From positions 32,001 through 96,000 of the forward strand of contig CBDHHL010000046.1 in the NCBI GenBank assembly GCA_965263355.1: 64,000 nucleotides of DNA. Direction: 5' to 3'. The stretch is from Leptolyngbyaceae cyanobacterium. Lineage in GTDB: Bacteria > Cyanobacteriota > Cyanobacteriia > Phormidesmidales > Phormidesmidaceae. Position 1 is the stretch's first letter. Each line of letters opens with the position of its first letter. The translations under genes were made by a program, and so were the position numbers. This document shows, one piece after another, positions 3,164-57,995 of this stretch. The notes under the pieces were generated by a model. It did no database searches and was not told where the DNA came from. It saw only the letters and a list, made by a program, of their open reading frames with translations.

Positions 3164-5089
3164 TCAGGAAAACTTGACTTCTTTGTTCTTCAATGTCTTT
3201 AGGCCTTTGACAGTATAATCTAGTGCGACAAGTGCTCTTTCAACAGCAGTTTCTGGGACTTCTGTTATGCCTAATCTTATCGCTATAAGCAATTCTGCTA
3301 AAGAGGATAGAGTTCTTTCAAACTCTGGAATCAAAGTAACAAAAGTAGCTAAGTTTTCAGGGGTAATAAATCCCAAACTCAGGATTCTATCCACCGTCAA
3401 TGTATTTGGGATGACGGCAGCCTCTTTTAATAAGAACTGGGGCTTTGGCAAATCAAGACTAGACAGATCTTGAGCTAACAATGCCTTTGCCTCTTTTAGT
3501 TTGAGATGGTGAGGAATTATTGCTTTTGATGAAGCAAATTTTACTGATCCATGTAGCTCAGCCAATGAGAACAATTCTGGCAAATCTTTGGGATGTAAAC
3601 CACCAGCAACAGCTAGAAACTCAGCGGCACTCTTTGTCATAAAGTGCCTACTACTATCAAGATTTTGATAAGGAAACCCTCTTAGCGAGTATGAGGCTCC
3701 ATCATATATTAATTCTGCTGTCTTTACATTCTCATCTATCAGCACCTGTGAAGGTTCATCCACTAAACTTAGAGGATTTTCTTCGTCCAGCAGCATCCAC
3801 TTATAAGAAGCAGGTAAACAGATAACGCCGTCTATACCCACTGAAGGGGATGATAATTCAGCAAAAAAACAAATATCCCGTGTCAATCCCGAATGCGGAA
3901 GACTGACGGAGTATACCGCCTCCCCATCCGGAGAAACAGAAGATGCCACAACTCTCATGGGTGGAAAACATACAGCTTCCCCATCCACATAATGATAAAG
4001 GATCCCAAAACCCCCAAAAGGATCCTCAGGTAGTACGGTAGCTTCTCCAGAATACCGACCTGCTACTAAAGGCTGGTAGCTATAATTTATACCATTTGTA
4101 AACACAAAGAAATCGCTCGGTTGACCCGTCAAGGTTACAGTTGGAATGGCTATTCCTGCCAGCTGTTTTCCACTGACATCCTGCACGACCCAAGTCCCAT
4201 GCCTATCTATCAAACCAAATGAAGCGTGCTTTTTGAGAATTTTTGCTTTTGATTCTTTTGTAGAAAAAACAACACTACCCTTTTGTTCAAGTTCTTTAAA
4301 AGCTTGCTTTACTAATTGTTTGGCTGCTCTCCTATCTAATAGTTGACTTGTTTTTTCGTAAAGATCACAATTCGCCCAATTAACCTGATAGGTATCAGTG
4401 TCAGTTTTATTTACTTGAATAACATCTGGAGGAACACAGGCAGTTTTAACCGTGTCTAAGTCTGACTGGCTTATTGGTTCTAATTGAGCCGCCGTGTGGA
4501 ATGCGGCTCGAACTCCTGGGGTTGCAACAGTACTAATATGATTTAACAGAGAAGCTTCCTTTAACTTCTCTTGAAACTCAACACATTGAGTTGCATTAAC
4601 TTTGCCCTGTAGAGCGACCAGTGCGGAACCAATTTTAGTGGTCTCTACTGGAGGTTGTAAAGTAGAATAGATACTGGACTCTGGAGGTCGATTTCCAGTG
4701 GCAGAGAAAGTCTCTGGTTGAAATAGTGCCGCACGTAATCGTTCTTCGTTCAGAGGATAATACATGCCATTAAACTGAAAGACATCCAGTGGACTCATTT
4801 TGGAGTCTTTAATAATGACAGGAATCATGACAAGTTTTGGGGATTGAGTGGGTCTGCCTTGGTTTCTTGGTATAGAAGCAACAACTACAGAACCGTAGCC
4901 AGTCCCCTTATTTTCATCCACTTGTATAAGTTGTACGGTTACCTGAAACTCACTAAGATAAGGAACCTGAGAAAACGCCTCTGACAAAATCTCTGAGTTC
5001 CACTGCTCAACATTATCACTTAAAGGAGTCAGCATACCCGCAGACTTAGAAATGCCAAATCGTAATTCTGTATCAATAAAAATGGACAT
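3164..5089 (-). CDS. Probable virion head-associated protein, K-x-A rich
   Basis: 641-aa ORF with SD; about 10 K-x-A tripeptides; in the structural block. Function is inferred. Confidence 0.55.
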   Translation of the reverse strand: MSIFIDTELRFGISKSAGMLTPLSDNVEQWNSEILSEAFSQVPYLSEFQVTVQLIQVDENKGTGYGSVVVASIPRNQGRPTQSPKLVMIPVIIKDSKMSPLDVFQFNGMYYPLNEERLRAALFQPETFSATGNRPPESSIYSTLQPPVETTKIGSALVALQGKVNATQCVEFQEKLKEASLLNHISTVATPGVRAAFHTAAQLEPISQSDLDTVKTACVPPDVIQVNKTDTDTYQVNWANCDLYEKTSQLLDRRAAKQLVKQAFKELEQKGSVVFSTKESKAKILKKHASFGLIDRHGTWVVQDVSGKQLAGIAIPTVTLTGQPSDFFVFTNGINYSYQPLVAGRYSGEATVLPEDPFGGFGILYHYVDGEAVCFPPMRVVASSVSPDGEAVYSVSLPHSGLTRDICFFAELSSPSVGIDGVICLPASYKWMLLDEENPLSLVDEPSQVLIDENVKTAELIYDGASYSLRGFPYQNLDSSRHFMTKSAAEFLAVAGGLHPKDLPELFSLAELHGSVKFASSKAIIPHHLKLKEAKALLAQDLSSLDLPKPQFLLKEAAVIPNTLTVDRILSLGFITPENLATFVTLIPEFERTLSSLAELLIAIRLGITEVPETAVERALVALDYTVKGLKTLKNKEVKFS

Positions 5090-6292: not shown

Positions 6293-9200
6293 TTAGTATT
6301 TCCATGCTTCATCTGGGTTCTTGGATTGCCCAAACTCTAATCCAAATGCCGCAGCGGGGATAGGGTGTGTTCCGTGCAGATCACTGACCCATCCTTCAGC
6401 AGCGCCGTCAAGGATTGTATCTTTTAAGTGCGTTGCCTGCATCCGAGCAAGCCAATCAGACCTCAATTCTCTTGGAAGAACGTTGGTGCCTTTAAGGATT
6501 GGTCTAGCAAGTAATTGTTCCCCTTTAGTCACTGAGGAATTGTATCTGTTCACCTCGGAAGCAGCAACCTTGTCTCCCTTTAGGAAAGTTGGGTGGTCTT
6601 TTGGGTCTTCTATCTCCGCCAAATTGGTAAGCGTCCTTACAAACACTTCCGCGTTTTTACGCAGGATGGGCGTACGGCTATAACCACCCAAGTTGGTCAG
6701 TTCATCCGTAACGTAATTTCTTACAGCAGAGATGCCAGTTAGTGGAAGCATCTCCAAAGGATTTTTAGGGCCGCCAGAAAGTGCATCTCCTTTTTTAACT
6801 TTTTGCCCCTTAGACACAACAGGAGATTGTCTAGCAGATAAATAATGTTTAGTGCCCGACACATAAATATTCCAACCTCCAACCACTTCATCTTTTTCAA
6901 TCTTGTCTATATTGCCAGATTGTTTAGATAGGACTGCGGAACCTGGCAAATTCTGTGGGAACTTCACCAGCTGCACAACCCGGTCAAACTGACTTGCCAC
7001 ATCGGAACCTTTGGCTCCAGCAACGCCACCGGTGTGAAAGGCATTCATAGCCATCTGTGTCAAAGGCTCACCTATTGCGTGCACAGCCTTTACTCCCAAG
7101 TTGTCTCCCTTTTCTGGGAATTGACCCATTTCATTTAGACCATAACAACGAGAGCACACGCCATCATGAGCTTGGCATTTTAGAGGTGTTCGTGCAGTAA
7201 AGGCTTTTACTCCGTTGTTCTGCATGCGCGTGAGCATTTGGGGCGTAACCACTTCTCCCGCCTTCAGAACACCCTTGCCTTTCAAAGAAACATCCACAGC
7301 TAAAACCCTATCGATAGCTTGATTGTCTGTGGGCGAAAACATGTTTCCTTCTTTCGTTCCACAATCTATCTCAGACACCAGATGGTCCATAGATGTCTGC
7401 ATCATCTCTTTTACCTGAGCACCAGGAAGCTGCGTTCCCTTAACACGACCAATAGTACCCTTTCTAGCGCCATACATAGAAGCCCAATAACTAGCAGTAT
7501 CCAAACCTTCAGAGTAAGACTTCTCTATAGAAATAGGGACAATACGCTCTTTACTGTCAACAACTGCAAGAGGTGTGATTGTCATTTGCTTAAACTGGTC
7601 CCAGTTACCTCTGGCTTGAGCCTTAACCCACTGATACATCTTGTTATTAGATTTATCGAATTTGGGCTTTGTTGCCTTATCTAAAACAATGCGAGCCTTA
7701 TTGTACAACTCTGCAAGAGCCTCATTTCTCTTGGCCTTGTTTCGAACTGACTTGTGGATCTCTCTTTCTCTTTCTTTAACTTGACGAAGGATATTATCCC
7801 TAGGCCCTTTCATGGCCTTAAAGTCTTCTAACCCAAAACCATAACCAGTCGCATGCACATTACCCATGTCCTTCAATGTGTCCGCTACATCCCGAAAAGT
7901 TTCTGCATCAGCTTTTTGCCCAATCTCACTCAAAAGCTTAGTTAAGTTCCTCTTATCAAGTTGTTGACCTTTAAATAGGTGCTTATATTCCTTAGGGAGT
8001 GATTGCTCTATAAGCATACGTCCAACTGTGGTGTGCTTAGCTTTATTTTCAGAGGCCTTCTTAATTCTATCCTGCAAGAAATTAGGGACCTCTTTCGTCG
8101 CATCTCTGATCGTAACTACGTCTGTGATCCCAATCTTTCCTTGTTTAACCGCTTTGGCTGCCGCAGCACCTGTTTGAAACACCAAGCCTGTTTTCTTTCC
8201 ATCTGTTCTTGTTAATTGGTGCAGCCCCAATAAGGATTCATGAGTAGGTCTAAACATCAGACCTCCATGAGAAGAACTAAACAGGTTTTTTGACGGAAGC
8301 ATTTTCCAGGCCTCATCTACCGCCTTATTAGAAATAGGGACAAAGGCAGCCATCTTATCTCCGTCAAAGTCGGCATTAAAACCACCTGTAGCGAGAGGGT
8401 GAATTTTAATCGCACTGCCTTTTGTCAAGACGGGCTTAAAGGCTTGGACGCCGTATTTATGTAATACAGGGTCACGCTTCAACAGTACAGGCCTGCTTTT
8501 CATCTCAGCTTCTAACATGTTGTAGACGATCGGCTCTTTGTCTTTTATAGCCTGCACTGCTTGTCCTGGAGCATAGCCAGATTGTCTCATTCGTCGCATG
8601 ACGAAAGGTTTATAAGCCGCCATTGCAGCAGATTCAGGCAAAGCGACCTCATCCATTCCCAAACTAGGCTCTGGAACGATTACGCCTCGCATGGACATAT
8701 CCTGCCGTTTACCAATGACTTTAGATTGGAAGAAAGCATTCTTCGGTTGAGTCATGCCCGACTTTCCGCCAATCAACTCAAGGATGCCCTTTCGGTGTCT
8801 TTGTTTGTACTCCATCCCAGTTAAACTCAGACCCTTTAGACCGTCATACAGACTGGCACCCAAAGATGTCATTTCTTCCGCCTCTTTTGGTACACCTAAA
8901 TCTTGGAGATCTTTTAACTGTGTGTTTATCGTACCCAACTGACGATACATCTCAGTCACATCGTCAGTCCTTATGTCACCGCTATCTAACACAGTTACTG
9001 GTCGCATTTTGGGCGGTAACACAGGAATATGTTGTAGCGTATACGCCTGACGTGCATTCAACTTTCGCTCATTCAGCACTCTCAGATATTTTATTTTTCT
9101 AGAAGCATCATTTAACCTGGGGCCTTTCAAACCTTGTACAGAAGCTTCCAGCTTTTGTAACTCACTACTAACATCGATTTTATCTAGTGCAGAAACTATA

Positions 9201-12200
9201 GCCTCTGGACCTGTGGCACCATCTATCTTTTGAGACCCGGCAATAACATTTTCATAAGCCTTTTGAGTTAGCCCTAACAAGGAACGTATAGGCTTCTCAA
9301 ATGTCGGGTTAGGGAGACGTTCTGTTAATTTCATGTGTCCCCAACGCTCACCTAACCCATGAGTTATAGAAGTCGTTCCCGTAATTTTCGGATCGAACAA
9401 GCCTCCAGGCTCAGGCAAGATCTCATTCGCGCTTGAATGCTTCAAAGGTATATCTGGCTTGGTGATTTCGCCATTAGACATTGATAGGACTTGCTCATCT
9501 GTAAGTGGCCCTAAGTGTAATTTGTTGCCCTCTTTATTTACGTCAACTCCCATAGTTTTGAGGTACCCAACAAATTTACGATAAGCGAAAGGAGTTTCTG
9601 GGGCTGGAGGAACTTCTCCATTTTGTAAGGCTGCCCAGTAATCATCATTTCTTTCCCCCTTTATAGCCTGAAATTCGCGTATGTTCTCTCGAGCACCGTG
9701 AGCCAACATGGCGTAAAGTCCCCCAGAATCCATTGTGACGCCAGAAGCTTTTCCACCTTGTTTGGGTTGCATGTTTGAATCGTAACGACCTACATTTCTA
9801 GCAGACACACCCTTTTCAGCCATGTGCTCGAGCTTTAGAATGTATTGTGGACCAGTCAAAGTTTCATAAACTTCTCCCGATCTTGGGTCAGTTATCTTTT
9901 CCTTATCTGAAATACCTACCTTCTTTAAGTCCTTCAAAACCTTTTCTGTATAATCTTTTATGTCTGCATTAAAGTTATCAACAACGTATGGCTTTCCAGT
10001 TTTTTGGGCTATCTTTCCCGCTGCTGTTTCCAAACACTGACCTAAATTAATTCTCGTACTAATTCCCGCAGGGTTTAGAAGTACATCAACAGGTCGACCA
10101 TTCTGTTTATGAGGCATCTCATTATCTGCAACAATATGAGTTACAATACCCTTATTTCCATGCCGACCCACTAACTTGTCACCAATAACAACAGGAGACT
10201 GCGACTTTACATGTACCGTGATGTCTTTACCGCTTTTAAAGACTTCCACAACTTCGCCTTCATAATCTGCTTCCCAAATAACTGGCTGAGCCTTTACAGG
10301 ACGAAATGCTGATTTACTAATCTTCTGAAGCTCTTGTAACTCTCTTGATGCTTCTGTCTTTTTGAGCACTGCAATCAACAAATCCCCGGGCTTTACACGT
10401 GTACCCTTTTTCACAACCCCAAGTTCATCTAAATTATTTGATTGTCGGTTTGTCCACTGGCCTGCAGTTTCTGCCATGAATCTGTTTTTATCTAAAATCG
10501 TAGACTCACCAGCTTGTACAGAGTGTCGTGTCATATGCTCTGAAGTGAGTTTTTTAGCAGCAGTTTCGGAGATGACAATTCCGTCCTCAAAGTTGTATCC
10601 CTGATAAGGCATGTAGCTGACTTCTAGATTTTTTCCTAAGGCCAATTTTCCATTACGTGTAAAATTTGTATCTGCTACTAGCTGGCCCTTCTTTACAGTA
10701 TCGCCCACCTTAACTAAGGGCTGACTATTTATGGCAGACTTATTATCATTCAAAGGGAAATCTTTGTAGAGTTCTACTTCATGTTTTTTTCTATTGGTAC
10801 CTTGAATAATAATACGGTCTTCTTTTACATCTATAACTTGACCATCCACAGGAGCAGTATGGGAGTTAAGCTTTCCTAATACCTCTTCGAAAGTAAAATT
10901 ACCGTCCGTCTTGTTTTGGACAAGAGGCTCTTCTCGGTCAACCAAAGCCACCGACTGCTCTAACTGTTTAGCCGCCACTGAAGTTCGGTTACCTTGATTG
11001 TTTTGCAAAAACGGGATGGAGTTAGCAGAAAAATCAAACATACCCTTTGGACTACTAATTACATATTGAACCTTATTGGCTGATACAGCACGTACCTCAT
11101 TAGAGGCATCCATAACCTTAACTTCCGTATTCCTAGGAACGTAATCCTTGCCTACCTTCTTGTACTGATCTGGGAATGCAATAATGGCCTTATTTGCTTG
11201 TTCTGAATTTAGCCACTCATATTGTTTGGTCTTTAGGTTGAAAACACGGGTCTTCAACTCTTTACCATGCTTAGCAGCGCCTAGTGCTATTTGAAGGATA
11301 CCACCAATTCTTGAAGATTCTGGTGTTTGAACAGGATCTAAAAAGCCCATCTGAGTTGGATTTATAGACTGAGCTTCAGGAGTAAATTGATTCTCATTCA
11401 AAATACCTCCTTCACCGAAGATAGTTGTTCTACGATGACCGCTAATAAACCCCATCGGATTTAGCTGCTTGGGGCGGTCAGACACAGAACTAGAAGAGAA
11501 AAAACTATCTATAGCCTTACCAAATGTATCTATCGTAACAACCTTAGAAACCGAGTCGGCATTATCTATTTTTCGCTTTAGCTTTCTTTGAATTTCTGAA
11601 CGTCCTCGAGTACTGATTCGCTCTTCTAAGTGATCTTCTGCCCCAAACACATCTTTGAATTGTAATTGGTCTCTCTCATCAGCTTCTTCCACACCACGTA
11701 TAACATTTAAAAGCTTCTTACTGCCAAGGACTAGAGCAGAACCATCTACTTGTTTTAATTCCTTGCCTAGAGTCAACTTAGTTGAATCTGGTCTCAACTC
11801 CGTTTTGTCAAAAGCCGCACGTATATTTGTTTGTGCTTCTTTCAAAGAGTCGGAAGATTGGCCTGTAAGTCGTTGACTAAGATGCAAAAGATTTGACGTC
11901 TCTACCCGCCCGGTAACTCGGTTGGCATTAAGGATTTCCTTTCCCCAAGTTCTCTCTAAATCTTCATCATCCACGCCCAACGTTTTTAAGATCGAGTAAG
12001 CAGGATAGCTTTTAGTGCCATACTGAATTCGGAATTTCTTTGTGTCGGAATCAAAGTCCATGCTGAACCCTAACCCCTTTGACAGGTTCCACTCCTGAGA
12101 AATACCACCCGCTTGAGTTTCTTTTGTGTAAACACCAGATTTTAAGCGGAGTTGATTGTGAATTTGCCGCTCTTCACCTCTTACAATGTATGAAAATCTT

Positions 12201-12493
12201 CGAGTTGGTTTAGGCAAAGTCCCCAAAGAAACGCGTCCTGAATCAATAACTTTGCCTGTTGCTTTATCTACCAGCTCAACCTCTCCGTAGATTGGAGCTC
12301 CCCACGTTTTGCCTTTCAGCTTTACATCCTTCTGTTTTGCTACGGAATCCACATGAGTGTTGTCATCCTTCACAGATACACTCTTTAGCCTCAGGATCCG
12401 TTTTTTACCTTCAACAGGGAAATGCGTGGAGATAGATTTTATTGTCGCTTTGCGCAACGCCTCAAAAGTCTCTTGTGGATCTAAACCGGCCAT
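6293..12493 (-). CDS. rpoBC: DNA-directed RNA polymerase, fused beta-beta' subunits (2066 aa)
   Basis: beta motifs PVQTPE, IPFLQN, GYNFEDGI, GDKLVGRHGNKG, YILKLEH; beta' motifs GGLFDPKITG, RWGH, PVLPP, PVLLKRDPVLH, NADFDGD (8357-8377), YGARKG, DCGT, C-x6-C-x2-CYG, IGEPLTQMAMNAFHTGG. Confidence 0.97.
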   Translation of the reverse strand: MAGLDPQETFEALRKATIKSISTHFPVEGKKRILRLKSVSVKDDNTHVDSVAKQKDVKLKGKTWGAPIYGEVELVDKATGKVIDSGRVSLGTLPKPTRRFSYIVRGEERQIHNQLRLKSGVYTKETQAGGISQEWNLSKGLGFSMDFDSDTKKFRIQYGTKSYPAYSILKTLGVDDEDLERTWGKEILNANRVTGRVETSNLLHLSQRLTGQSSDSLKEAQTNIRAAFDKTELRPDSTKLTLGKELKQVDGSALVLGSKKLLNVIRGVEEADERDQLQFKDVFGAEDHLEERISTRGRSEIQRKLKRKIDNADSVSKVVTIDTFGKAIDSFFSSSSVSDRPKQLNPMGFISGHRRTTIFGEGGILNENQFTPEAQSINPTQMGFLDPVQTPESSRIGGILQIALGAAKHGKELKTRVFNLKTKQYEWLNSEQANKAIIAFPDQYKKVGKDYVPRNTEVKVMDASNEVRAVSANKVQYVISSPKGMFDFSANSIPFLQNNQGNRTSVAAKQLEQSVALVDREEPLVQNKTDGNFTFEEVLGKLNSHTAPVDGQVIDVKEDRIIIQGTNRKKHEVELYKDFPLNDNKSAINSQPLVKVGDTVKKGQLVADTNFTRNGKLALGKNLEVSYMPYQGYNFEDGIVISETAAKKLTSEHMTRHSVQAGESTILDKNRFMAETAGQWTNRQSNNLDELGVVKKGTRVKPGDLLIAVLKKTEASRELQELQKISKSAFRPVKAQPVIWEADYEGEVVEVFKSGKDITVHVKSQSPVVIGDKLVGRHGNKGIVTHIVADNEMPHKQNGRPVDVLLNPAGISTRINLGQCLETAAGKIAQKTGKPYVVDNFNADIKDYTEKVLKDLKKVGISDKEKITDPRSGEVYETLTGPQYILKLEHMAEKGVSARNVGRYDSNMQPKQGGKASGVTMDSGGLYAMLAHGARENIREFQAIKGERNDDYWAALQNGEVPPAPETPFAYRKFVGYLKTMGVDVNKEGNKLHLGPLTDEQVLSMSNGEITKPDIPLKHSSANEILPEPGGLFDPKITGTTSITHGLGERWGHMKLTERLPNPTFEKPIRSLLGLTQKAYENVIAGSQKIDGATGPEAIVSALDKIDVSSELQKLEASVQGLKGPRLNDASRKIKYLRVLNERKLNARQAYTLQHIPVLPPKMRPVTVLDSGDIRTDDVTEMYRQLGTINTQLKDLQDLGVPKEAEEMTSLGASLYDGLKGLSLTGMEYKQRHRKGILELIGGKSGMTQPKNAFFQSKVIGKRQDMSMRGVIVPEPSLGMDEVALPESAAMAAYKPFVMRRMRQSGYAPGQAVQAIKDKEPIVYNMLEAEMKSRPVLLKRDPVLHKYGVQAFKPVLTKGSAIKIHPLATGGFNADFDGDKMAAFVPISNKAVDEAWKMLPSKNLFSSSHGGLMFRPTHESLLGLHQLTRTDGKKTGLVFQTGAAAAKAVKQGKIGITDVVTIRDATKEVPNFLQDRIKKASENKAKHTTVGRMLIEQSLPKEYKHLFKGQQLDKRNLTKLLSEIGQKADAETFRDVADTLKDMGNVHATGYGFGLEDFKAMKGPRDNILRQVKEREREIHKSVRNKAKRNEALAELYNKARIVLDKATKPKFDKSNNKMYQWVKAQARGNWDQFKQMTITPLAVVDSKERIVPISIEKSYSEGLDTASYWASMYGARKGTIGRVKGTQLPGAQVKEMMQTSMDHLVSEIDCGTKEGNMFSPTDNQAIDRVLAVDVSLKGKGVLKAGEVVTPQMLTRMQNNGVKAFTARTPLKCQAHDGVCSRCYGLNEMGQFPEKGDNLGVKAVHAIGEPLTQMAMNAFHTGGVAGAKGSDVASQFDRVVQLVKFPQNLPGSAVLSKQSGNIDKIEKDEVVGGWNIYVSGTKHYLSARQSPVVSKGQKVKKGDALSGGPKNPLEMLPLTGISAVRNYVTDELTNLGGYSRTPILRKNAEVFVRTLTNLAEIEDPKDHPTFLKGDKVAASEVNRYNSSVTKGEQLLARPILKGTNVLPRELRSDWLARMQATHLKDTILDGAAEGWVSDLHGTHPIPAAAFGLEFGQSKNPDEAWKY

Positions 12494-12671
12494 TAATTCC
12501 TCTCACAATAACACAGTCAACTGACTGCAAGATTATCATAATTGTTGGGATAAGAAGACTAGTGCGTAGTTATTACGAAGAACAAAACCAGTCCTCTACA
12601 GAGGATTTCAACAAGCAGCACCTCGCCATGCTAGGCGAATCTCAAGATGAAGAAGAAAAGGAAGAAGAACA

Positions 12672-12773
12672 ATGTGGGCAATGAAAAATTTAGCAGCAAA
12701 AGTACTGGCTATAATTGTGATGGAAGTAGCCTCCATTATAATCTCCGTCATTGAAAAATGGCACGACAAATAA
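12672..12773 (+). CDS. Small hydrophobic peptide (MWAMKNLAAKVLAIIVMEVASIIISVIEKWHDK)
   Basis: 33 aa, one TM-like segment; overlaps the end of a short acidic ORF ending at 12684. Confidence 0.4.
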   Translation: MWAMKNLAAKVLAIIVMEVASIIISVIEKWHDK

Positions 12774-12778
12774 CGGGT

Positions 12779-12829
12779 AAAAGAAAAAAAGAAGGAGAAA
12801 AGGAAGGGAGGATGTGTTCCTCCCTTCCT
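12779..12829 (-). terminator. Intrinsic terminator after the portal gene
   Basis: Perfect 12-bp stem AGGAAGGGAGGA/TCCTCCCTTCCT with a 5-nt loop (12801-12829), followed on the minus strand by a T-rich tract, just past the portal stop. Confidence 0.75.
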
Positions 12830-12832
12830 CCC

Positions 12833-14698
12833 TTAGGTAGTAGACTCAGGCCCTCTTCTCGGTGCCTTTTGTTGTGGGTCTGGACTTTGGGCAGAGCTTT
12901 GATGCGCCCCTTGTCGCTCTGCTAAAGCTGGTGCAACAAGCTCCCAAAACATAGGATTCTCTTGTTGGATTTGAGCGATATATTGTGCTCGAGTAGCCTC
13001 ATCGAGCTGGTCTAACTGAGCTGCAACACTTTGAACTAATTTTTCTATCGGCACACCTCCAGGAGTTACTGGAGACTCTGCGCCAGGAACACCAGATTGA
13101 GGCATTTCTGGGCTCTCTTGCCCCTCCTGCGGCTGTTGTTCCATTGGCGTGCCTGGCGCCAGTTCCGACATAACTTTCTGAGCTCGAGCCTGATATTTTA
13201 TGCCTGTTAACTGCGCTTCACCTTGAATCTGTGATTGAGCCACAGCCTGACTTAGTTGACTCTCTGCCAGCAACTCCTGTTCAACCGCAATCTGTTTTCT
13301 TTCTGCGTCAGCATCCCATTCTGTATCTTCCAGCAAAGTCTTATCTGAAATCTTCCCTGCTTGGTTAAGCTGTAAGTTGAATGCACTTCTTTGAAGGTCA
13401 TCCGCCATTTTAAACCTGCGAAAATATGCAGGCGCTGGCACCCAACTCATGAAAGCACCAACTCGTTCCATGATCCAATTGACCAGATTGATATGGTCCG
13501 ACTTATAATCCAAGAAATGATTTTCCAACATTCTCAAGGAAACACTCGAACCAGAGTAACTTAAGCCTCCGAATATAAACTCATTGGGAACACCCATACC
13601 AGCCACAATATGTTCAGCCCAAACTCGGTATTCTTGGCTCAGCATCAAAGCACGACCTTGTGCCCCTAATGTTTGTTGACCTATTGGAATAGGTAAAATA
13701 GGAATATAGTTGTTATCCAGCCGCCAACGTTGAATCTCTATCTCTATCTGCTTCTTCCAAGCACTCAAGTTAGTTGTCGGGTAAGGATCGCTAGAACCAG
13801 AAGCAACCTGCGGAAAAAGGACTCGAAGAGGTACAATATGCTCTACAGCTATAGCCTCCTGAGCTTTTCTCAATATCTGCAAATAGAACACGTCTTTCAA
13901 CACAGGAAGAATCATCGAAAGCCCCCAACCCTTATCCTTCTGAGCGATTGTAGGCCTTTTCATATGAAAAATATTATTCGGGTTAAAAATAACATCCTTA
14001 TTCTGTTTCATTGCCTCAATGAAACTCGTAGGAGTTTTTTCAATAATATCCTTCTTCCCCATTTGAATATCATTTTTCAAGGTAGTAGGTATGCTATAAT
14101 AATAAGTGTTCTTACCTACCAATTCATTATGTCGAATTGTTATTCGTTCTGGGCTCCAACGAATCAGATGTATATCTCTCCAACTTTTTACATACGTATC
14201 CTGGGCTTTAAACTCTCCATAATGACCGCACTTCTTACAGGAACCTTGATAACCAAAATTACGGAATATGTAGCTTGTCTTTTCTATAGGCATGGAATGC
14301 CCACAATTTGAGCACACTAAAAACTTTTTGAATGGGTAATTCACAGAGATAAAGCAATTACCGTAACAATTATAATCTAATCCTGCCTCCACTTGAAATT
14401 TTTTAAACTTCAATTGCAACTTAAAAAAGTCATCCCACTTACTTCTAAGATTTTCGTCACTGGAGTCAATAATTAAGTCAGTGACTGGGTACTCAGACAT
14501 CTTGTAAACAACAGAGTTTATCAAGGGATTTGATATAAAATAGTACTCACACCACTTCAATAACGTCTTAAACGACGTAGGTAAGTACATATGACTTATA
14601 TCAAAAAATGGAGAAGGATACCGAATTGTCCCCACATGATCGGAAAGCAAAGATCGACTTGCAGGGCCAAAACTTCCAGGAACCGGAGTCACACTCAT
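12833..14698 (-). CDS. Portal protein with a Zn-ribbon insertion
   Basis: Portal-like layout (NPLINSVVYKMSEYP, DYNCYGNCFI, NIFHMKR...GWGLSMILPVLK, IVAGMGVP.EFIFGG, MLEN), Q/P-rich C-terminal tail, CSNC...CKKC insert. Confidence 0.75.
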   Translation of the reverse strand: MSVTPVPGSFGPASRSLLSDHVGTIRYPSPFFDISHMYLPTSFKTLLKWCEYYFISNPLINSVVYKMSEYPVTDLIIDSSDENLRSKWDDFFKLQLKFKKFQVEAGLDYNCYGNCFISVNYPFKKFLVCSNCGHSMPIEKTSYIFRNFGYQGSCKKCGHYGEFKAQDTYVKSWRDIHLIRWSPERITIRHNELVGKNTYYYSIPTTLKNDIQMGKKDIIEKTPTSFIEAMKQNKDVIFNPNNIFHMKRPTIAQKDKGWGLSMILPVLKDVFYLQILRKAQEAIAVEHIVPLRVLFPQVASGSSDPYPTTNLSAWKKQIEIEIQRWRLDNNYIPILPIPIGQQTLGAQGRALMLSQEYRVWAEHIVAGMGVPNEFIFGGLSYSGSSVSLRMLENHFLDYKSDHINLVNWIMERVGAFMSWVPAPAYFRRFKMADDLQRSAFNLQLNQAGKISDKTLLEDTEWDADAERKQIAVEQELLAESQLSQAVAQSQIQGEAQLTGIKYQARAQKVMSELAPGTPMEQQPQEGQESPEMPQSGVPGAESPVTPGGVPIEKLVQSVAAQLDQLDEATRAQYIAQIQQENPMFWELVAPALAERQGAHQSSAQSPDPQQKAPRRGPESTT

Positions 14699-14702: not shown

Positions 14703-15335
14703 TTATTTCCCCCTCACCCGTCTAGACTTCCGCCCTGGTTTGCGGCCAGCCAAACGATCTATTCGCTTACCTACGTATTTACCTACTTCGGCCGCACCGA
14801 TAGTAGCTGGAGCGGAAGCAAGTAACCCAGTCCCTCCAGTCAAAACGCCGCCTGCCGCAAAACCTAAGTTTTCTCCTATGGCTTCACCAAGTCCTTGGTC
14901 AGATTGCCCTCTAGCTGCTGCTGCGATAGAAGGTACAGCCATAGCTGTACCCACAACCATTTGACTCTTTGCGCCTACTGGAGCATATTTCAATGCTTTG
15001 CTAGTACCTGTCCAACCAGACCGAGAAGCTTGTTCTGCAAAACCTCGATATCCCGTTGCGCCAGTATCACCCAATAAATGCTCACCCTGTCCGAAAATAT
15101 CCCTAAAAACACGAGAAACAGGCCCACTGCCCTTATTTGCTATGGCTTTCTCATCTATGGTTGGAGCAAAAGCATCCCAACCTTCTTTTAAGCCCTTACG
15201 ACCTGACTTCGTTCGGCGGCCTATCGTTAAAAGGTCCTTTACCACTCCCCATTCTCGAGGGTTCCATGTCATGGGATTTAACTTCTTCTTAGCCATAGCA
15301 ATCTTTTGAAGCTCTAAAGTGAATGCCTCATTCAT
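14703..15335 (-). CDS. Gly-rich probable virion protein
   Basis: N-terminal AFTLELQKIA; glycine-zipper-like hydrophobic segments; basic tail. Confidence 0.6.
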   Translation of the reverse strand: MNEAFTLELQKIAMAKKKLNPMTWNPREWGVVKDLLTIGRRTKSGRKGLKEGWDAFAPTIDEKAIANKGSGPVSRVFRDIFGQGEHLLGDTGATGYRGFAEQASRSGWTGTSKALKYAPVGAKSQMVVGTAMAVPSIAAAARGQSDQGLGEAIGENLGFAAGGVLTGGTGLLASAPATIGAAEVGKYVGKRIDRLAGRKPGRKSRRVRGK

Positions 15336-16135
15336 GACAACGCCTCCAATTGTTCAGCCATTTGCGTTGTTCTCATACCTGCATACCGATAAGCCACAAC
15401 TAACTTGGCTGCTTGAACAGCAACAAAGTCTGTATCTGAAAAGGACAACTCTGCTTGGTCCTTCATCAAATAAAATCTATTTTTCACAGGATCGCTATTT
15501 ACCCTCTTCACAACCAAGCGAACCCAATCCTCTTGCAACAACGGACAATTGGTCGGAGTCCCCTCCTCATTGAAAGGAAACTCAGTGTCGTAAGAAACAA
15601 TACACTTCATACTTTCGCTATCTAAATCTACGACATGATCACAAGTAGGACATCGAAAATATGGTCGCTCAATATATGGCAAGGCATCTTGCAAGGGTTC
15701 CGGAAGCCAAGTAATACCTTGATCTAATGCACAAGCAGCAACATACTTATGAATGTCCTCGCTCCAAGTCTCTCCTCCTCGGATCTCATTTATAATATTG
15801 ACGCCATTCCACAATTGAGCCACAGAGCACTTTTGGACTGAGGCCGGTGTAGGCATAACATTATTCAATGCCAATATTATTTTCTCAAAAATTTCCCACT
15901 CATACCAAACAGACGTTGCTTGCAATATTGCCCGAAAAGCTTGTATCTTTTGCCAATTGAGCGCAGCTATAGAGTTAGCGCGAAAGACATCTTTGATACT
16001 GGATCTCAAGACATCCGACTCCCAATCCAGCATTTCTGGACCTAATTCTCGTATCAGTAAAGTCCCGAGAACAGTTGGGTGTGCATCATGCCAACCAAAA
16101 AATAGATTTAACTTGGGTATTTTAGATGCCGTCAT
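15332..16135 (-). CDS. Hypothetical protein with CxxC
   Basis: Overlaps both neighbours; likely start MTASK at 16135 (ORF track gives 16195). Confidence 0.65.
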   Translation of the reverse strand: MTASKIPKLNLFFGWHDAHPTVLGTLLIRELGPEMLDWESDVLRSSIKDVFRANSIAALNWQKIQAFRAILQATSVWYEWEIFEKIILALNNVMPTPASVQKCSVAQLWNGVNIINEIRGGETWSEDIHKYVAACALDQGITWLPEPLQDALPYIERPYFRCPTCDHVVDLDSESMKCIVSYDTEFPFNEEGTPTNCPLLQEDWVRLVVKRVNSDPVKNRFYLMKDQAELSFSDTDFVAVQAAKLVVAYRYAGMRTTQMAEQLEALS

Positions 16136-17243
16136 GCCAAAGACTCTGCCCTTCTGTTTTCCCAGAAAACCGCATATCCTCTCCCAGGCGAGCAACTATT
16201 CGTTTGAGCCTAGTAGGTAATTTTCGAAAAGTGCCAACAGGGTCTTTGTTGAAGTCACTCATAATATTATCGGAAAATAACTCATCGAAATCTCCAGCAT
16301 ATTCAGTTGACAACAGCAGCAAGGCTTCTTCTGTTAGCCTATCTGGACCACTCTCCCAAATAACATTAGCTCGTTTAGCAATCCCATAAGTACTTTGAAA
16401 CGGGTCAGGAATACCTTCTCCCCAAGAATAAGAAAGTCCATTATCTTCATCAAACTTAGCCAATAGATATGCATATTTTTCCGGAGAGAGTTCACCACGC
16501 ATTCCGGCTAATTTGGCTAGTACGGGCTGTGCTCGATGCTCATGCGGCAGAGCACTCATCCGGTCTACTAAAGCGTTATCCAATTGCACATCTGGACCGT
16601 AATCATTTGAAGCAGCTTCTTTCACCTGTTCCGCAGTTTCTACGCCCAACTCTGTCGCACGCTGTTGAATGTTAACCGCAAAACTTCTACGCACCCCTAC
16701 AGGCATATGAGCCTGTTTCTCCACCCAATACTCATTCGCTTGCTGAACTTGTGCAATCGTTGTTAGCGGAAAATAATTCTTGCCATTATATTGAACCCCC
16801 CAGTGCTCCTCAGCCTCTTTCACAAACACAGGCGCTGGTTTCTGTCCTGACACATCTACCACGTTTGAAGAAAGGGAACCAAATCCTGCCACTTTAGTTA
16901 ACGTGGCAGAAGGTAAAGACCCATACGACATTACAGCATTTGTTATGAAGTGCGCTGCCACCTTTTGTGCCGATTCAGGTAACTTATCCCCATGCCTTTG
17001 AAAATATAACTCTGAAATTTTTGTTACACCATTATTATAAATTGGATATCTAGGATGAGCTACACCTTCATCCATAACAACCAAAGCAAAATCCGACGTA
17101 GCAAGTTCATCTCTCCCAATGAACTCTGCATGCTTTATAACGTCCGGAACCCTACTTAAAGACGGGTAGACCTCTTTTAGCGTCTCTCCACCATCATCAT
17201 AAATGTCTAAAACAACCCCTGAAAATTTCATCTCTTCTTGCAT
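16122..17243 (-). CDS. Probable head or scaffold-type protein, K-x-A rich
   Basis: 373 aa; 10 of about 20 lysines are in K-x-A; first gene of the portal operon. Confidence 0.6.
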   Translation of the reverse strand: MQEEMKFSGVVLDIYDDGGETLKEVYPSLSRVPDVIKHAEFIGRDELATSDFALVVMDEGVAHPRYPIYNNGVTKISELYFQRHGDKLPESAQKVAAHFITNAVMSYGSLPSATLTKVAGFGSLSSNVVDVSGQKPAPVFVKEAEEHWGVQYNGKNYFPLTTIAQVQQANEYWVEKQAHMPVGVRRSFAVNIQQRATELGVETAEQVKEAASNDYGPDVQLDNALVDRMSALPHEHRAQPVLAKLAGMRGELSPEKYAYLLAKFDEDNGLSYSWGEGIPDPFQSTYGIAKRANVIWESGPDRLTEEALLLLSTEYAGDFDELFSDNIMSDFNKDPVGTFRKLPTRLKRIVARLGEDMRFSGKTEGQSLWHDGI

Positions 17244-17322: not shown

Positions 17323-17733
17323 ATGAAGACCAGAGAAACTGCAGCTCTTGGACACTTCCTGACAACCCTTAGACGCAACTCCGCACTTAAAGACCAATAC
17401 GCGCTCAGCTCAAAACTGGGTATAAGCTACCCAACCCTTAGAAAGTGGGAGACCGGAGAGGCCACAATATCGAGAAGGAGCCTGGACAACTTCCTGCTTG
17501 CCACAAAAGCCAATAGCCATGAGCGTAAAAAAGCCTTACTGCTCAGAGATCAATTTCCACGAAAAAGAACACTAGAAGGACTGTCCCAAAAAAATAAAAA
17601 CAAAGCAGTGAGAAGGCTATTCAAGTACATTAAGGAACTGTGTGAATATAACGACTATGTTATATCTCCAAAATTGCAGCACGACATCAAAATAGATATA
17701 AAAAGAATTATCGAGGAAGAATTAGAAAAATGA
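17323..17733 (+). CDS. XRE-family HTH transcriptional regulator
   Basis: QYALSSKLGISYPTLRKWETG helix-turn-helix. Confidence 0.8.
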   Translation: MKTRETAALGHFLTTLRRNSALKDQYALSSKLGISYPTLRKWETGEATISRRSLDNFLLATKANSHERKKALLLRDQFPRKRTLEGLSQKNKNKAVRRLFKYIKELCEYNDYVISPKLQHDIKIDIKRIIEEELEK

Positions 17734-25084: not shown

Positions 25085-28000
25085 ATGGCCCTGAACTTAA
25101 AAATCCCGCCAGTAACAGCTGCACTAGACGACGAATCCGCAGCACAAGCTAGACAAGCCTTTCTAAACAAGATTGAACAAGAGCCGGAAGACTGGATTGG
25201 TTTTGATACAGAAACTCACGGACTAAAAATTGTAAAGGAGGGAGTAAAGCCAACTCGGGCAGACCCATTAGATTGGATGAATGACACCGTAACTTTCTGG
25301 TCGCTTGCGGCAAAATTTAATGGAGAATACAAACGATTTTGTTTTGACCAAAATCACTTTCAATTTTTTGCCCCTGTACTAGAACACCCTAAAGCCAAGC
25401 TGGCTGGATGGAACCTAAAGTATGATGCTCATATAGCTTGGAACTGCGGCATCAACATTTGGAACTGTGCACGTGCTGTAGACTTCCTAATGGCTGGCTC
25501 TATGCTAGATGAGAATGTGACTCGAAGCGAGATGTCACTAAAACAAGTTACGCCTCGAGGATATAACTCAGAGTGGCGAAGAGCAGTAGCAAGAACTGTA
25601 CAATCAGAGATGGGATATACAGACTTTTGTGATATTCCAAGAGAGGTCTATCTAGAAGTACAAGAAGAAGTAGAGAGACGTATAACGCCTTGGGAAGGTT
25701 TCCAAATGACACCTTTCAAAGCCCTATTCAAAGGCTGCATAGACCCAAACACCAGAAAGCCTGCTGTAGAATTTCAAACAAGCCTCTATGATCTACCTGT
25801 TGATAGGGTTGCAAATTATGCTTCGTTGGACGCCTTAGCCCATCTTTGGCTAGGCGAACATATCCAACAAGTTATGCAGGCACACAAATCTGAAGACTAT
25901 TGTGCCTACCCAAACATGTGGGATTACTATTGCGAAGCAGAAGACCCCATAACTCAAGTGCTTTGGCGCCTAGAACGCCGAGGTCTACCACTTAACAAGA
26001 AACATTTAGAAGCACTAGTCGACCCACTTGAAGAAGAAATTGCAGCTATAACTAAAGAAATAAATCGGAAAGCTCAAAAGCCCATAAATCTCAGGTCACC
26101 CCAACAAGTGGCAAATTTCTTATATGGAGATTTTCCAAAAGATGCCTATGAGGATCCAAGATGGAGGAAAATAATCCCTGCCTGGACAGGCACCCTCCAA
26201 CCTAAAACTGATGCAGAAACTTTAGAGCTTCTTGCCGCCGCAGGAAATGATGCGGCAAAACTTATTAACCGGCATCGAAAAATCGAAAAGATTTATGGGA
26301 CCTATGTAACGAAACTCATATTTTGTCATGATTATTTTAAAGATGGGCGGGTACACACTCAATTTCGGCAAAATGGAACTAGGACAGGTCGTTGCTCGAC
26401 TGGGGATCCTGTTAACTCTCAGAATCTCCCAAACCCTGAAAATGATGAATTTCAAATCCGAGTAGCATTCTGCTCAAAGTCTTCAAAGGAAAAATCAGTC
26501 ACCAAAAAGCCCTACAAGCGCAAGTTGGTTTGTGGGGACTATGCACAATTAGAGATGCGCATCATGGCCCATTTTTGTCTGTATAAATGTATGAGGATAT
26601 CCGTCTGTGAAGGCGACACTAGAGCCATAAGTATCCTCGTAAATCAACGACGGAAACCTTATGTTAGATCTTTCGATTTTTCCTTAAACACACACGTGAA
26701 TAAACAAATCACCAACCACTTTAAGAACGGAGATCATGTTAGTTACGCCCCAACTACCGCTGGTATGAAGCCAGAAGATTGGCTGATTGTACGTCACGAT
26801 GCGGCCCCAAACGGGATGCCTCTCATCATTACACCACAACATCGGGTGCTTAGATCAGATGGGAGCAAAATCCCTATTGGGGATTTAGAAGTAGGTGATT
26901 ACTTATTATACGATGAACCAAAGTTAATCGGACTCCACCTGCAGATGGTTATCATCCAAGTCATCAATAACAAAGAATTCAAACACCGCATTGAGTGGAA
27001 AGAGAATGAGGGAGTCCCATACGAACACAGAACTTTTGATGAAAAATACTGCCAGTTTAAACAAAATGTGCTGAAACAACTTGAAGCTAAAAATCATGGG
27101 AGCCCGTCTCTCAATCATATCAAACGTCGCATTAGACCAACAAAACAACTCTGGGAAATCGTGGATAATATGGCCGATAAACACCGGCCAAAAAAAGAAC
27201 TTTTGGAACAAATTGGTCCGGCCGGTTTAGCCATCTGGTATTGTGATACGGGAACAATATATGGTCATCTAGGCTCAAGCTTCATCAAGATTTCAATGCC
27301 CAGAACATGTGCAGAAGACGTTGAAATACTCAATAAACTAGGTACAAATTTTATAACTATGAGCAATGGCTTTGGTCTGTTGTCCAAAGACTTTGAGTCT
27401 TTCTTCCAGATTGTAGGTCCATACATTCCTTGGTGCATGAGCTATAAAGTGCCTAAAGAATTTCACCATTATATAGGCACCGCTTCGGAAGAATGGGAAG
27501 TTCCTATGCCCCCCATTCGCCCTGTGACTATTATTGAGAAGCGGCCAGCGAAATTAGAAGATCTCGAAAGAGGTTACGGGTCTAAATACGACATAGAAGT
27601 AGAAGATACACACAACTACTTTGCGCAAAATATCTTGGTATCTAACAGCACAGACAATGCCATGATTGATGCCATTTGGTCCGGGAAAGATATGCATTGC
27701 ATCACCGTGGAAAGGATGTGGGGCATACCGTATGAAGAAGTCAAAGAGGCTAAAAAAGCTAAAGAAGCCGGCACAGCCACAGAAGAACAACTGGGACACG
27801 CGAAAAAACGTTCAGATTCAAAAGCTGTAGGATTTGGAATTTTTTATGGAGCCCAAGAGAAAAACATAAGTATCCGTTTAGAGTGCTCAAGAGAACGAGC
27901 CAGAGAACTCATAAACCTATACTTTAAAGCATACCCCAAAGTAAAACGATTCATCAATGAAACACACTGGCGTTGCAGACAAATGCAATTTGTAACAACA

Positions 28001-39236: not shown

Positions 39237-39243
39237 AATGCCG

Positions 39244-39759
39244 TTATAGCATGAGAGACCAATTCACTGTTAAAGTTTGCCCAGTGGTTTTTACAATAGG
39301 TGTACTAAGCGTTCTATAGGCAATTACATTTACGGAAGAAGAAGTTGCAACAATACTGCCGTCATCTACCACTAAGCCAAACTCAGTTAAATTAACAGAA
39401 GCAAATTCCGCTGCTGGATAAGAAACTTGGTACCTAGCCACATTAACGGGAGAAAATGTAGGCGGACTTAACTGTTTCAAAAAGTTGGTACCATCAAAAG
39501 TTTGTGCAGTAGCCAATGTAGATACAGAAGACACACTTGGTTGAGAGCTGGTACCCGCAATAATCCATCTCGGCCGCACTGCGGAAACAGGCACATCTGT
39601 AGTGCCCATAGTTTGCCAATAGCTCAGGTCGCGTAACCAGGTCTTGCCAGTTTCCGTAAACACATTCCTACCGGAATGCGCACGTATCAAAACATTGTTT
39701 GAGTCATAAAGGCAAATGGTGACAGAGTTCTGTCGAACATTTAAAACGTCAGTGTCCAT
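39244..39759 (-). CDS. Baseplate/tail-fibre attachment protein, paralog 2
   Basis: Shares NVFTETG..WL..LS.W...G.TDVP...RW with the upstream ORF. Confidence 0.65.
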   Translation of the reverse strand: MDTDVLNVRQNSVTICLYDSNNVLIRAHSGRNVFTETGKTWLRDLSYWQTMGTTDVPVSAVRPRWIIAGTSSQPSVSSVSTLATAQTFDGTNFLKQLSPPTFSPVNVARYQVSYPAAEFASVNLTEFGLVVDDGSIVATSSSVNVIAYRTLSTPIVKTTGQTLTVNWSLML

Positions 39760-40328: not shown

Positions 40329-40331
40329 AAT

Positions 40332-43925: not shown

Positions 43926-43952
43926 GCAGATTCCTTTCCGTTACTTAACGGT

Positions 43953-44267
43953 ATGCCTTTTATAGAGATGGACCAAGACTTGATCAGAAAACTTGTTGCA
44001 GAGGAGATTGACATTGTTACCTCGGCGGTAGAAACAGAAAAACTTCTGTACGAAAAAGCTGTATGCCCTACCTGCGGTAATGAGGGAGCCATTAAGAAAT
44101 TGGCAGGGACTAAAGTGGGAGCAAATATGGAAATTGTACAAAGTCCTTTTTCCCCGGGCCGGATATTAGCTCGAGGCTCAGCTCAATGTCCTCAATGCTC
44201 TACTGAATGGGAACCCATATCCGGGATACTGATAACACAACCAGCTGTTATTGACGAGTCAATGTAA
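43953..44267 (+). CDS. Small Zn-ribbon protein
   Basis: CPTC...CPQC; fills the gap between two minus-strand structural genes. Confidence 0.65.
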   Translation: MPFIEMDQDLIRKLVAEEIDIVTSAVETEKLLYEKAVCPTCGNEGAIKKLAGTKVGANMEIVQSPFSPGRILARGSAQCPQCSTEWEPISGILITQPAVIDESM

Positions 44268-48900: not shown

Positions 48901-48912
48901 AGTGATATTCCT

Positions 48913-53719: not shown

Positions 53720-53726
53720 ACTCAAC

Positions 53727-57063: not shown

Positions 57064-57285
57064 CTAGGAAATTAATAAAAAGTCGTCAACTTCTGCCTGA
57101 ACTAGATTGGCTCCTGCGTTAACGTTAAGTGCGGCAACTTCATTAGCCCCTCGAGCAGTTAATACAGTTCGAAGGAATCTGGTTTCATTGTCTAATCGGT
57201 CAATCTCTGTTTGCAAATACTGATCTGCTGCTGCTTGTAACGCATCCAAATTGGCGTCTCGGGTTTGTTTATCGGGAACTGCCAT
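57064..57285 (-). CDS. Small hypothetical protein
   Basis: Coupled to the sigma gene (TAATG overlap). Confidence 0.65.
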   Translation of the reverse strand: MAVPDKQTRDANLDALQAAADQYLQTEIDRLDNETRFLRTVLTARGANEVAALNVNAGANLVQAEVDDFLLIS

Positions 57286-57995
57286 TACAAGTACACTCTA
57301 GCCTTTCTTTCTATACTGGCACGAAGTCGAGAAATCTTTGCGGGGCTGGTATTCATCACTTTAGCAATCTCTGCCCCCGACAGCACGCGTTTACCATTTA
57401 ATCCCCTAAGGTGTTCATATACGAACAACTCGTCTGGAGTAAGATCATATGGTAACATGCGAAGAATCTCTTTCTCCTTAGAATACATGTTGTTTGATGG
57501 GTCTTGAACAAGAGTTGACCCTATAAAGTCTTTGCGTTGTTGGCTGCGAATTCGACCTACAGCAGCCACACTCAACTTCAACTTTTCTGCTATCTCCTGA
57601 TCATTTGGGGGTCTACCCAACGCAAAAGTTAGCTGAGTTACAGCATTATTATAGTCTGTAATTTTAGATGTAATGTTCTCAGCAATTCTCACTGTGTTTT
57701 GTCGTTGAGTTATCCAGCGATGACCCTTTCGCATAGATAGAGTTACCCAAGAACCTAACGCAGAACCTCTGTCAGGTTTATAAGTTTCGACGGCCTTAAC
57801 AAATTGTTTTGTAAATTCTCCTTGGATTGCAGCAGGAGGCAATTCCACATTGCTGGAGAATTTACTCGTTTCATACTTTATCATAGGCCGAAAAGCATTT
57901 AACAAAGGTACGAGATCTTTGGGCTTTCTTCCATTGTCATTCCATTGATTCCATAACTTTAGGTCATTTTCGGCACGCTCAGCAACAGTTGTCAT
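57285..57995 (-). CDS. Sigma-70-family factor with regions 2-3-4 (FliA/SigB-like layout)
   Basis: VKAVETYKPDRGSALGSWV (region 2), TVRI, LGRPPNDQEIAEKL (region 3), LTPDE...SGAEIAKVMNTSPAKISRLR (region 4). Confidence 0.88.
   Translation of the reverse strand: MTTVAERAENDLKLWNQWNDNGRKPKDLVPLLNAFRPMIKYETSKFSSNVELPPAAIQGEFTKQFVKAVETYKPDRGSALGSWVTLSMRKGHRWITQRQNTVRIAENITSKITDYNNAVTQLTFALGRPPNDQEIAEKLKLSVAAVGRIRSQQRKDFIGSTLVQDPSNNMYSKEKEILRMLPYDLTPDELFVYEHLRGLNGKRVLSGAEIAKVMNTSPAKISRLRASIERKARVYL

Follow-up and report, generated by a model that had tools for sequence, protein, structure and literature searches.

Does a phage encode a whole bacterial-type RNA polymerase core as one polypeptide, and does that enzyme work with a sigma factor of its own? 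The question is raised by a 64,000 nucleotide (nt) stretch of DNA, hereafter the window (Leptolyngbyaceae cyanobacterium assembly GCA_965263355.1, contig CBDHHL010000046.1, positions 32,001 to 96,000 of the forward strand). In it a single uninterrupted open reading frame (ORF) of 2066 amino acids (aa), P0001, carries the beta and then the beta' motifs of RNA polymerase. The initial annotation had taken the window for phage DNA, which is borne out by its genes: portal, hub/spike-like gene and a replication set with PolA, DnaB, DnaG, RecA and HU, with no tRNAs. It was found that the gene is a real, undescribed variant of the phage two-barrel polymerases, and that its fusion is ancestral in a large phage family and not an assembly artefact. 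That the product is an active one-chain polymerase working with the phage's own sigma70-family factor is judged somewhat likelier to be right than wrong.

The polymerase is encoded on the minus strand; the plus-strand frame over the same positions is riddled with stops. In agreement with the order initially proposed, Pfam domains of beta (residues 342-405 and 548-913) are followed by those of beta' (1150-1967); RNA_pol_Rpb2_6 was matched with an expectation value (E) of 6e-62. The top solved-structure matches of the chain were bacterial beta' chains (PDB, E 6e-106). The catalytic, trigger-loop and C-terminal zinc motifs, also claimed at the outset, are all kept relative to Escherichia coli (coordinates in Table 1). 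The three catalytic aspartates are retained in 86/86, 85/86 and 86/86 family rows, and the equivalent of E. coli beta H1237 is kept at residue 890. Two-barrel RNA polymerases are recognized by a DxDxD metal site in the barrel of beta' and by two lysines in that of beta, and the chain displays both. Structure prediction, which had been suggested as a check, gave bacterial beta and beta' folds in two AlphaFold2 models from 38-row alignments, covering residues 1-1200 (predicted local distance difference test, pLDDT, 83.9) and 867-2066 (pLDDT 84.7), including bridge helix, trigger loop, clamp and flap. Their best Foldseek matches were bacterial beta (template modelling score, TM, 0.67) and beta' (TM 0.79). 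In BFVD, no viral structure was closer than proteins of 1127 and 1192 aa, two lengths also shown by the beta' of Rhizobium Y65 and Vibrio Va2. The intact catalytic core predicts an active DNA-dependent RNA polymerase of bacterial type. The rifampicin-pocket positions, which we take to be Q513, D516, H526 and S531 in E. coli numbering, read D, K, G and T in the chain and vary across the family, so that the enzyme is predicted to be insensitive to rifampicin.

The junction (YLKTMGVDV-NKEGN-KLHLGPLTD..., residues 976-1012, window 9568..9458) had been described as almost linker-free, and indeed the strands on its two sides are separated by two residues in both models. Because both place strands 983-988 and 991-996 in this way, we infer a hairpin, which would close the natural contact of the beta end with the beta' start. 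The pLDDT of this block was 79-84 in one model and 91-95 in the other.

The fusion was then followed through 85 related DNA loci, which include the best 80 of 512, were not de-duplicated and are biased to close relatives. The junction is crossed in one ORF in 84 of them, the remaining locus being cut by a contig end. Complete single chains number 66, another 12 loci have beta' divided near residue 1450, and 7 loci give truncated forms. Two of the loci, L044 and L068, were counted with TGA read as sense. Among the matches listed in a protein search, each of 119 other proteins combined the Pfam domains of beta and beta' in one chain and was 40-74% identical to the 2066-aa chain (best local alignment); this search admitted lengths of 1136-3616 aa only, so that split forms were invisible to it. 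Chain lengths (n = 120, among the matches listed) were 2031-2112 aa in 97 cases, longer in 21, many of which carry intein or LAGLIDADG domains, and shorter in two. In FastTree, eight split forms, including the cultured phages Arash and D69, were nested as one group (0.974), a grouping that IQ-TREE did not resolve. The whole gene was also recovered in one piece, with zero differences, in contigs of two runs from one sample, possibly the source. The single chain of the initial annotation is thus family-wide, and no stop or misassembly was found at the junction.

A stop near the junction of L044 was considered as a broken fusion and rejected, as it is one of several in-frame TGAs, which are also seen in L068; this suggests TGA recoding. 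The frames of both loci (L044:9962-16021 and L068:9995-16021) are broken by TGA only, and the two group with L055. Another family member (L081:9869-21136) is broken at profile positions ~920 and ~1451, possibly by an intron.

A trimming of about 700 aa with respect to E. coli had also been claimed. The gap to E. coli beta plus beta' (1342 + 1407 aa) is real and amounts to 683 aa; the trimming is overstated, because most of it is the absence of E. coli-type insertions. Of this difference, approximately 470 residues fall in beta 216-297, 319-356, 939-1047, 1127-1142 and 1157-1192 and in beta' 946-1186, segments which we take to be E. coli lineage-specific insertions. Insertions of this kind are lineage-specific (PMC11515920). 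The shortest of 48 bacterial pairs measured was 2294 aa, ~230 aa longer than the phage chain, and published pairs of the mReC phages (multi-subunit RNAP-encoding Caudovirales) are shorter still, at ~1000 + 900 aa (PMC7481178 supplement). Real losses include beta' 140-172 and the N-terminal beta' zinc ribbon, whose E. coli cysteines C70/72/85/88 are deleted; two cysteines at this segment were found in 0/106 homologues where it could be located.

In the mechanism proposed, the C-terminal strand of beta passes via a two-residue turn into the N-terminal strand of beta', as seen in sequence and models. The covalent link and a drifted alpha-contact surface may let the chain assemble without alpha or omega. 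The phage sigma would bind the clamp helices and the flap, and would read a -10-only promoter, GG(T/G/C)ATAAG, before non-structural genes. Judging from Arash, enzyme and sigma may be made late, packed into the particle and brought in together with the DNA, so that early transcription can start at once. The structural genes, including that of the polymerase, might use a second, TAnnnT class of promoter read by the host polymerase or by a second sigma, which is the step we are least sure of. The complete form of the proposal, a two-protein holoenzyme of sigma and a chain free of alpha, omega and N-terminal zinc ribbon, with an orthogonal, probably rifampicin-insensitive -10-only promoter, both proteins being particle-delivered in a widespread lineage, is more tentative, with a chance falling a little short of even.

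The candidate promoter was sought around the polymerase gene and in whole genomes. CTTAT stood out in k-mer counts upstream of the gene (46/72 loci vs 12.2). G[GA]-N-ATAAG was present on the strand opposite the gene in 37/71 loci, against 0 on the gene's strand and 1.5 in shuffles; the pattern was chosen on the same loci as counted, and the Arash genome served as an independent test. There, 30 of 31 GGTATAAG sites lie on the strand of the non-structural genes, with no strong -35 consensus, and 26/31 are within 70 nt of an annotated gene start (chance 8%). Across 20 related records (18 from IMG/VR plus Arash and D69) the octamer was counted 184 times against 68 for the reversed control, and in five other phages with an RNA polymerase 11 times against 29. 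A second class, [CT]TAAA[AC]T, picked by eye on the Arash data, was found 10-70 nt before plus-strand Arash genes at 14/36 sites (chance 2.2%). CTTATNCC was considered as a late promoter of the polymerase gene and rejected, as the Arash genome shows the strand of GGTATAAG to be the sense strand. In the window, the site at 58004 is weak because a like site precedes sigma in only 4/14 scored loci. Generic sigma70 sites (28 vs 29.3 in shuffles) and terminators (13 vs 13.4) occur at chance level between 1000 and 18500.

Packaging of the enzyme with sigma in particles is likely, by analogy with cultured phages. Gp206 was the most detected protein of the Arash particle proteome (3516 spectra, 128 unique peptides); Gp216 gave 40 unique peptides, sigma Gp10 24, the portal 32, and primase and ligase 2 each, and the second sigma Gp196 is unlisted (PMC10585845). 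For P23-45, late genes are read by the host enzyme and an early class by the phage enzyme (PMC10770324). The family is also poor in cysteine, with a median of 4 against 20.5 in bacteria. The N4 virion RNA polymerase is not known to contain any cysteine.

A T7-like scheme without packaging would account for part of these data. Here the host sigma70 polymerase would read the gene early, from a promoter of the gene's own that lies behind the portal terminator, and enzyme and sigma would then read the GG-N-ATAAG genes. This agrees with the terminator between portal and polymerase gene, with the TTG-N16-18-TAnnnT sites that face the gene in 14/71 loci (shuffles 2.7, standard deviation 1.9; other strand 1), and with the many contaminants in the Arash particle list (PMC10585845). 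However, the same list has Gp206 at its top with a peptide density like that of the portal, the polymerase gene is placed among structural genes on their strand, and the TAAA[AC]T class lies in front of the structural-strand genes of Arash in general. The cysteine depletion of the family also speaks against the scheme, which is considered unlikely.

The absence of alpha and omega, initially stated for the window, was confirmed there (no match among 53 ORFs scanned). In the 20 related records, alpha (TIGR02027, PF01193) and omega (PF01192) gave no hit over cut-off, and 14/14 controls, which include archaeal genomes, were detected. Below threshold, the records contained one ORF with an alpha C-terminal domain only, one stop-ridden stretch and two further hits at E~0.02 inside long ORFs. 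One beta' barrel locus per record was found in 20/20. At the position of E. coli beta G1215, which hydrogen-bonds alpha R45 (PMC13202282), Gly is present in 97% of bacterial and 96% of archaeal-type rows, and Pro in 87% of 85 family rows and 78% of nine other phage rows. The D1084 position is Asp in 99% of bacterial and 96% of archaeal-type rows and Glu/Gln/Asp in 68/15/9% of the family. D1084 presumably takes part in the alpha contact. Alpha-less two-barrel enzymes exist in phiKZ (PMC8287921), and on sequence grounds alpha-independent activity of the phage chain appears likely.

A 129-aa frame in one family genome (L089, G017:C1:171887-172141) matches the alpha C-terminal domain only. Two candidates for missing subunits were discarded: a conserved 287-aa neighbour (15332-16195) gave no lead as an alpha substitute (best atlas score 0.78), and for an omega-like small ORF between portal and polymerase, comparable to Arash gp205, the minus strand offers only a 53-aa frame.

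The fused core could still need a scaffold, namely host alpha2 (and omega) or a phage protein that has escaped recognition. Within the alpha-binding segments the MP..G and D.TG parts are conserved, an alpha-like platform is called fundamental for the eukaryote-type viral enzymes covered in a review (PMC13374769), and assembly in phiKZ requires a fifth subunit, gp68, which contacts the a15 region of beta (PMC8287921); moreover, a very diverged subunit might escape a loose first-look search. Against this, the change of Gly to Pro at 1215 and the loss of E1083 and of the aromatic residue 1087 are common to the other alpha-less phage enzymes sampled, and no alpha-family gene was found in the 20 records even with archaeal genomes among the controls. 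A packaged enzyme, furthermore, cannot rely on host alpha unless it is assembled before packaging. A scaffold requirement is rated as improbable, to the same degree as the T7-like scheme.

The partner initially pointed to, the sigma70-family factor encoded from 57285, has homologues in 18/20 related records and in 13/13 of those at least 90% complete. A complex model of chain residues 625-1385 with this sigma scored 0.75 against 0.01 for the best control, the mark for such scores being reached by 116/157 solved pairs and 2/215 mismatched pairs; at least 93% of contacts are shared between runs, and the partner pLDDT is at least 81. In the model, sigma region 2 sits against the clamp helices, and the flap carries region 4. 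This is to be read as likeness and not as binding, because holoenzymes are textbook structures. Beta' R275 and E295, presumably sigma70-binding residues, are invariant in 79/79 bacterial rows; in the family, mostly hydrophobic residues take their place, and the family residues at these positions, 1189 and 1211, touch sigma 55-59 in the model.

It is also conceivable that sigma redirects the host polymerase, as the sigmas of T4-like phages do, while the chain acts separately, in sigma-independent pre-early transcription or in pulling in the DNA. Phage sigmas acting on the host core are common (PMC13282480), the sigma and polymerase genes are ~45 kb apart, and 7/20 records hold a second, more cellular-like sigma over the TIGR02937 cut-off. 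Nevertheless, sigma is found in every near-complete record and in Arash particles (PMC10585845), the fold of the chain retains clamp helices and flap with an altered surface chemistry, and the complex model of chain and phage sigma passes, which makes this division of labour distinctly improbable. As a separate observation, the second Arash sigma, gp196 (L006:5522-6559; also L007:1-634), occurs in Arash, D69 and others and is a candidate late sigma.

Several points weigh against an active, packaged one-chain enzyme with its own sigma. The octamer reaches at least ten sites in only 8/20 records and in D69 gives 9 against 11 for the control; in the window it is not enriched (8 vs 7.7), with three suggestive sites only (12547, 17419 and 58004). 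The sigma70-like sites facing the polymerase gene also fit early expression by the host enzyme. The Arash enzyme is split and only ~32% identical, and the Arash particle list comprises 116 proteins, many clearly non-structural, for which its authors allow carry-over (PMC10585845). Of the 162,553-base contig on which the protein collection places the chain, the alpha and omega search covers the 64-kb window only. The family alpha-contact segments keep M1085, P1086, G1091 and D1214, the change of D1084 to E is conservative, and Bacillus subtilis, without an R45-type contact, yet uses alpha (PMC13202282). Because neighbouring residues are kept and B. subtilis is without the same contact, the changed residues are suggestive only as a hint at alpha independence. 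Finally, the pass of the complex model may mirror solved holoenzymes, and phage and host core are not distinguished by it.

The origin of the family was assessed in trees of 919 columns, obtained in quick searches (FastTree, IQ-TREE) and rooted on archaeal-type metagenome loci; their bacterial sampling left out Adlerbacteria, Campylobacterota and Wolbachia. The family formed one clade in three trees (1.0, 100, 100), and the bacteria one group without it (0.895 with 60 rows, 95 with 15 rows, 97 with 13 rows). Uniting the family with three Candidate Phyla Radiation (CPR) rows as one clade cost 15.7 log units (approximately unbiased test, p-AU, 0.061). Of the deep branching initially suggested, the place outside 60 bacteria in the preferred tree stands, and is insecure given this p-AU. 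Links to other phage enzymes were weak or long-branched (Carin-5/GN1 0.82 and 96; mReC-like pairs, selected on length and gene order, 0.69 and 87). A recent cellular capture, named initially as a result that would speak against the proposal, is excluded because the chain is only 25-32% identical to bacteria, outside which it falls in all three trees. An old capture from a CPR-like lineage is possible, because a CPR lineage with a cellular fusion has been reported (PMC11515920) and is unsampled in the trees. An assembly or annotation artefact or a recently captured cellular rpoBC is hardly credible, as both are refuted by continuity (the contigs of the two runs and 84/85 loci) and low identity, even if cellular fusions exist, including those of Candidatus Adlerbacteria and Wolinella (PMC11515920), and the CPR grouping is at p-AU 0.061.

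The cultured phages Carin-5 (Cobetia) and GN1 (Yersinia), loci L189 and L190, encode beta' then beta as separate genes and are a possible sister group of the family; in Carin-5 an annotated sigma gene is found directly upstream.

Cellular RpoBC fusions, which also exist in Helicobacter and Wolbachia, are not known to lack alpha2, omega or the zinc ribbon. In contrast, the phage family is without all three and is not nested in the sampled bacteria. The fusions of Wolinella and Ca. Adlerbacteria share with it the same head-to-tail fusion point (PMC11515920).

The closest described system is in the same clade: Gp206, Gp216 and sigma Gp10 of Salmonella phage Arash (OQ632216; PMC10585845), with Vibrio phages D69, D148 and D181. 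In Arash-like phages beta is fused to beta' across the same junction, the gene follows the portal gene, and the sigma is homologous. Enzyme and sigma are reported in Arash particles, and the available account labels Gp206 'beta', does not recognise the fusion and gives no promoter or activity (PMC10585845). Arash and D69 differ in that beta' is split after ~residue 1450 and identity is ~30-32%.

The mReC enzymes resemble the family as alignable, bacterial-like beta/beta' of tailed phages outside cellular clades, some equally compact, but 104/104 published phage rows are separate beta and beta' proteins, the longest of 1563 aa, and several contigs hold two pairs, whereas the single-chain family holds one enzyme (PMC7481178). 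The mReC are defined by separate beta and beta' proteins of at least 800 aa; the family is absent from those published rows, and fusion is mentioned in the available text for crAss only (PMC7481178). Further mReC markers are a major capsid protein of PF07068 and a TerL of VOG01069; no major capsid or TerL gene was identified in the window by Pfam and PHROG scans. An IMG/VR contig (G019; loci L004 and L198) carries two beta'/beta pairs, of 1005 + 1354 aa and ~895 + 1010 aa, whose sizes match two mReC size classes.

The phiKZ and AR9 enzymes are likewise two-barrel and without alpha or omega, and their packaged form reads early genes (PMC8287921, PMC13282480). They consist of four or five polypeptides, with two enzymes per genome and a highly diverged sigma-like subunit; the window phage instead has a single enzyme made of one chain, and its sigma is recognisably of the sigma70 family. 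In crAss phi14:2 gp66 and P23-45 gp96/gp64 both double-psi barrels also lie in one chain, and these single-polypeptide enzymes serve virion-delivered early transcription (PMC10770324). They are beyond cellular beta/beta' profiles (PMC7481178 for crAss) and without much cellular architecture, whereas the window chain aligns end to end with bacterial beta/beta' and keeps the sigma-docking parts. The accounts in PMC7824862, PMC13282480 and PMC8287921 describe, where available, split or YonO-like phage enzymes. Moraphages were considered as members of the family and rejected, having no RNA polymerase (PMC12619734). No description of the single-chain family or its promoter was found in the literature covered, outside which most subscription journals lie.

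The features of the window are collected in Table 1. The portal family was found in 62 loci and the hub/spike-like family in 39. Downstream of the GGGATAAG site lie two tiny plus-strand ORFs of 35 and 33 aa (12647-12773); relatives carry small divergent genes at this place between portal and polymerase. ORF 3164-5089 was considered as a counterpart of Arash gp218 and showed no similarity. The PolA gene (25085-28357) contains an intein/LAGLIDADG insertion, and four minus-strand ORFs of 1197-1550 aa (35640-53833), without Pfam or PHROG match, are probably tail or baseplate genes.

Table 1. Position of the polymerase gene, its parts and other features in the window
Feature	Position	Strand	Basis or remark
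Single-chain beta-beta' RNA polymerase gene (P0001), 2066 aa	6293..12493	-	ORF, Pfam, HHalign, fold matches
Beta half, residues 1-990	9524..12493	-	HHalign to E. coli RpoB 38-1342, probability 100
Beta' half, residues 991-2066	6293..9523	-	HHalign to E. coli RpoC, probability 100
Fusion junction, with two residues linking strand 983-988 to strand 991-996	9506..9547	-	DSSP, both models
Beta double-psi barrel lysines K773 and K781 (GDK...GRHGNKG)	10151..10177	-	E. coli beta K1065/K1073 equivalents
Catalytic NADFDGD motif, residues 1373-1379	8357..8377	-	Kept vs E. coli
Trigger-loop His1820	7034..7036	-	H in 76/78 family rows
C-terminal zinc site C1711, C1773, C1780, C1783	7145..7363	-	Kept in 65-69 of 78 family rows
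Short loop, residues 1039-1049, in place of N-terminal beta' zinc ribbon	9347..9379	-	Alignment to E. coli
Pro870 at E. coli beta G1215 position (alpha-contact site)	9884..9886	-	Alignment
Sigma70-family factor, 236 aa, probable partner	57285..57995	-	Pfam Sigma70_r3, PHROG sigma
Candidate phage promoter GGGATAAG, pointing away from polymerase gene	12547..12554	+	Same layout in 37/71 loci
Candidate phage promoter GGCATAAG, with its end 8 nt upstream of sigma start codon	58004..58011	-	Weak
GGTATAAG at head of replication cluster, inside helix-turn-helix ORF	17419..17426	+	Uncertain
Sigma70-like site GTGCCA-N18-TATAAT facing polymerase gene	12735..12764	-	Not above chance locally
Intrinsic-terminator-like hairpin, 15 pairs, directly after portal gene, before polymerase gene	12798..12832	-	
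Portal gene, upstream neighbour	12833..14698	-	35% identity with the annotated portal of Arash, gp204, over 459 aa
Baseplate hub/spike-like gene abutting polymerase stop codon	5099..6292	-	PHROG 4540 E 5.6e-6; Phage_base_V E 0.003

To our knowledge, all cellular multi-subunit polymerases assemble on an alpha-like dimer, and those phage enzymes without alpha that have been studied to date either come in fragments (phiKZ, AR9) or can hardly be aligned (crAss, P23-45). Since the present family preserves the bacterial fold down to single residues, a structure would reveal directly which functions require alpha, omega and the zinc ribbon, and a cultured relative with a predicted promoter makes the idea testable now. 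The gene would be a marker for a large lineage of 160-220 kb phages, which screens needing separate beta and beta' hits would probably miss. One-gene core, own sigma and promoter together would form a candidate orthogonal expression system. If the proposal is true, chain and sigma make up the simplest sigma-dependent polymerase in nature that has the full bacterial architecture.

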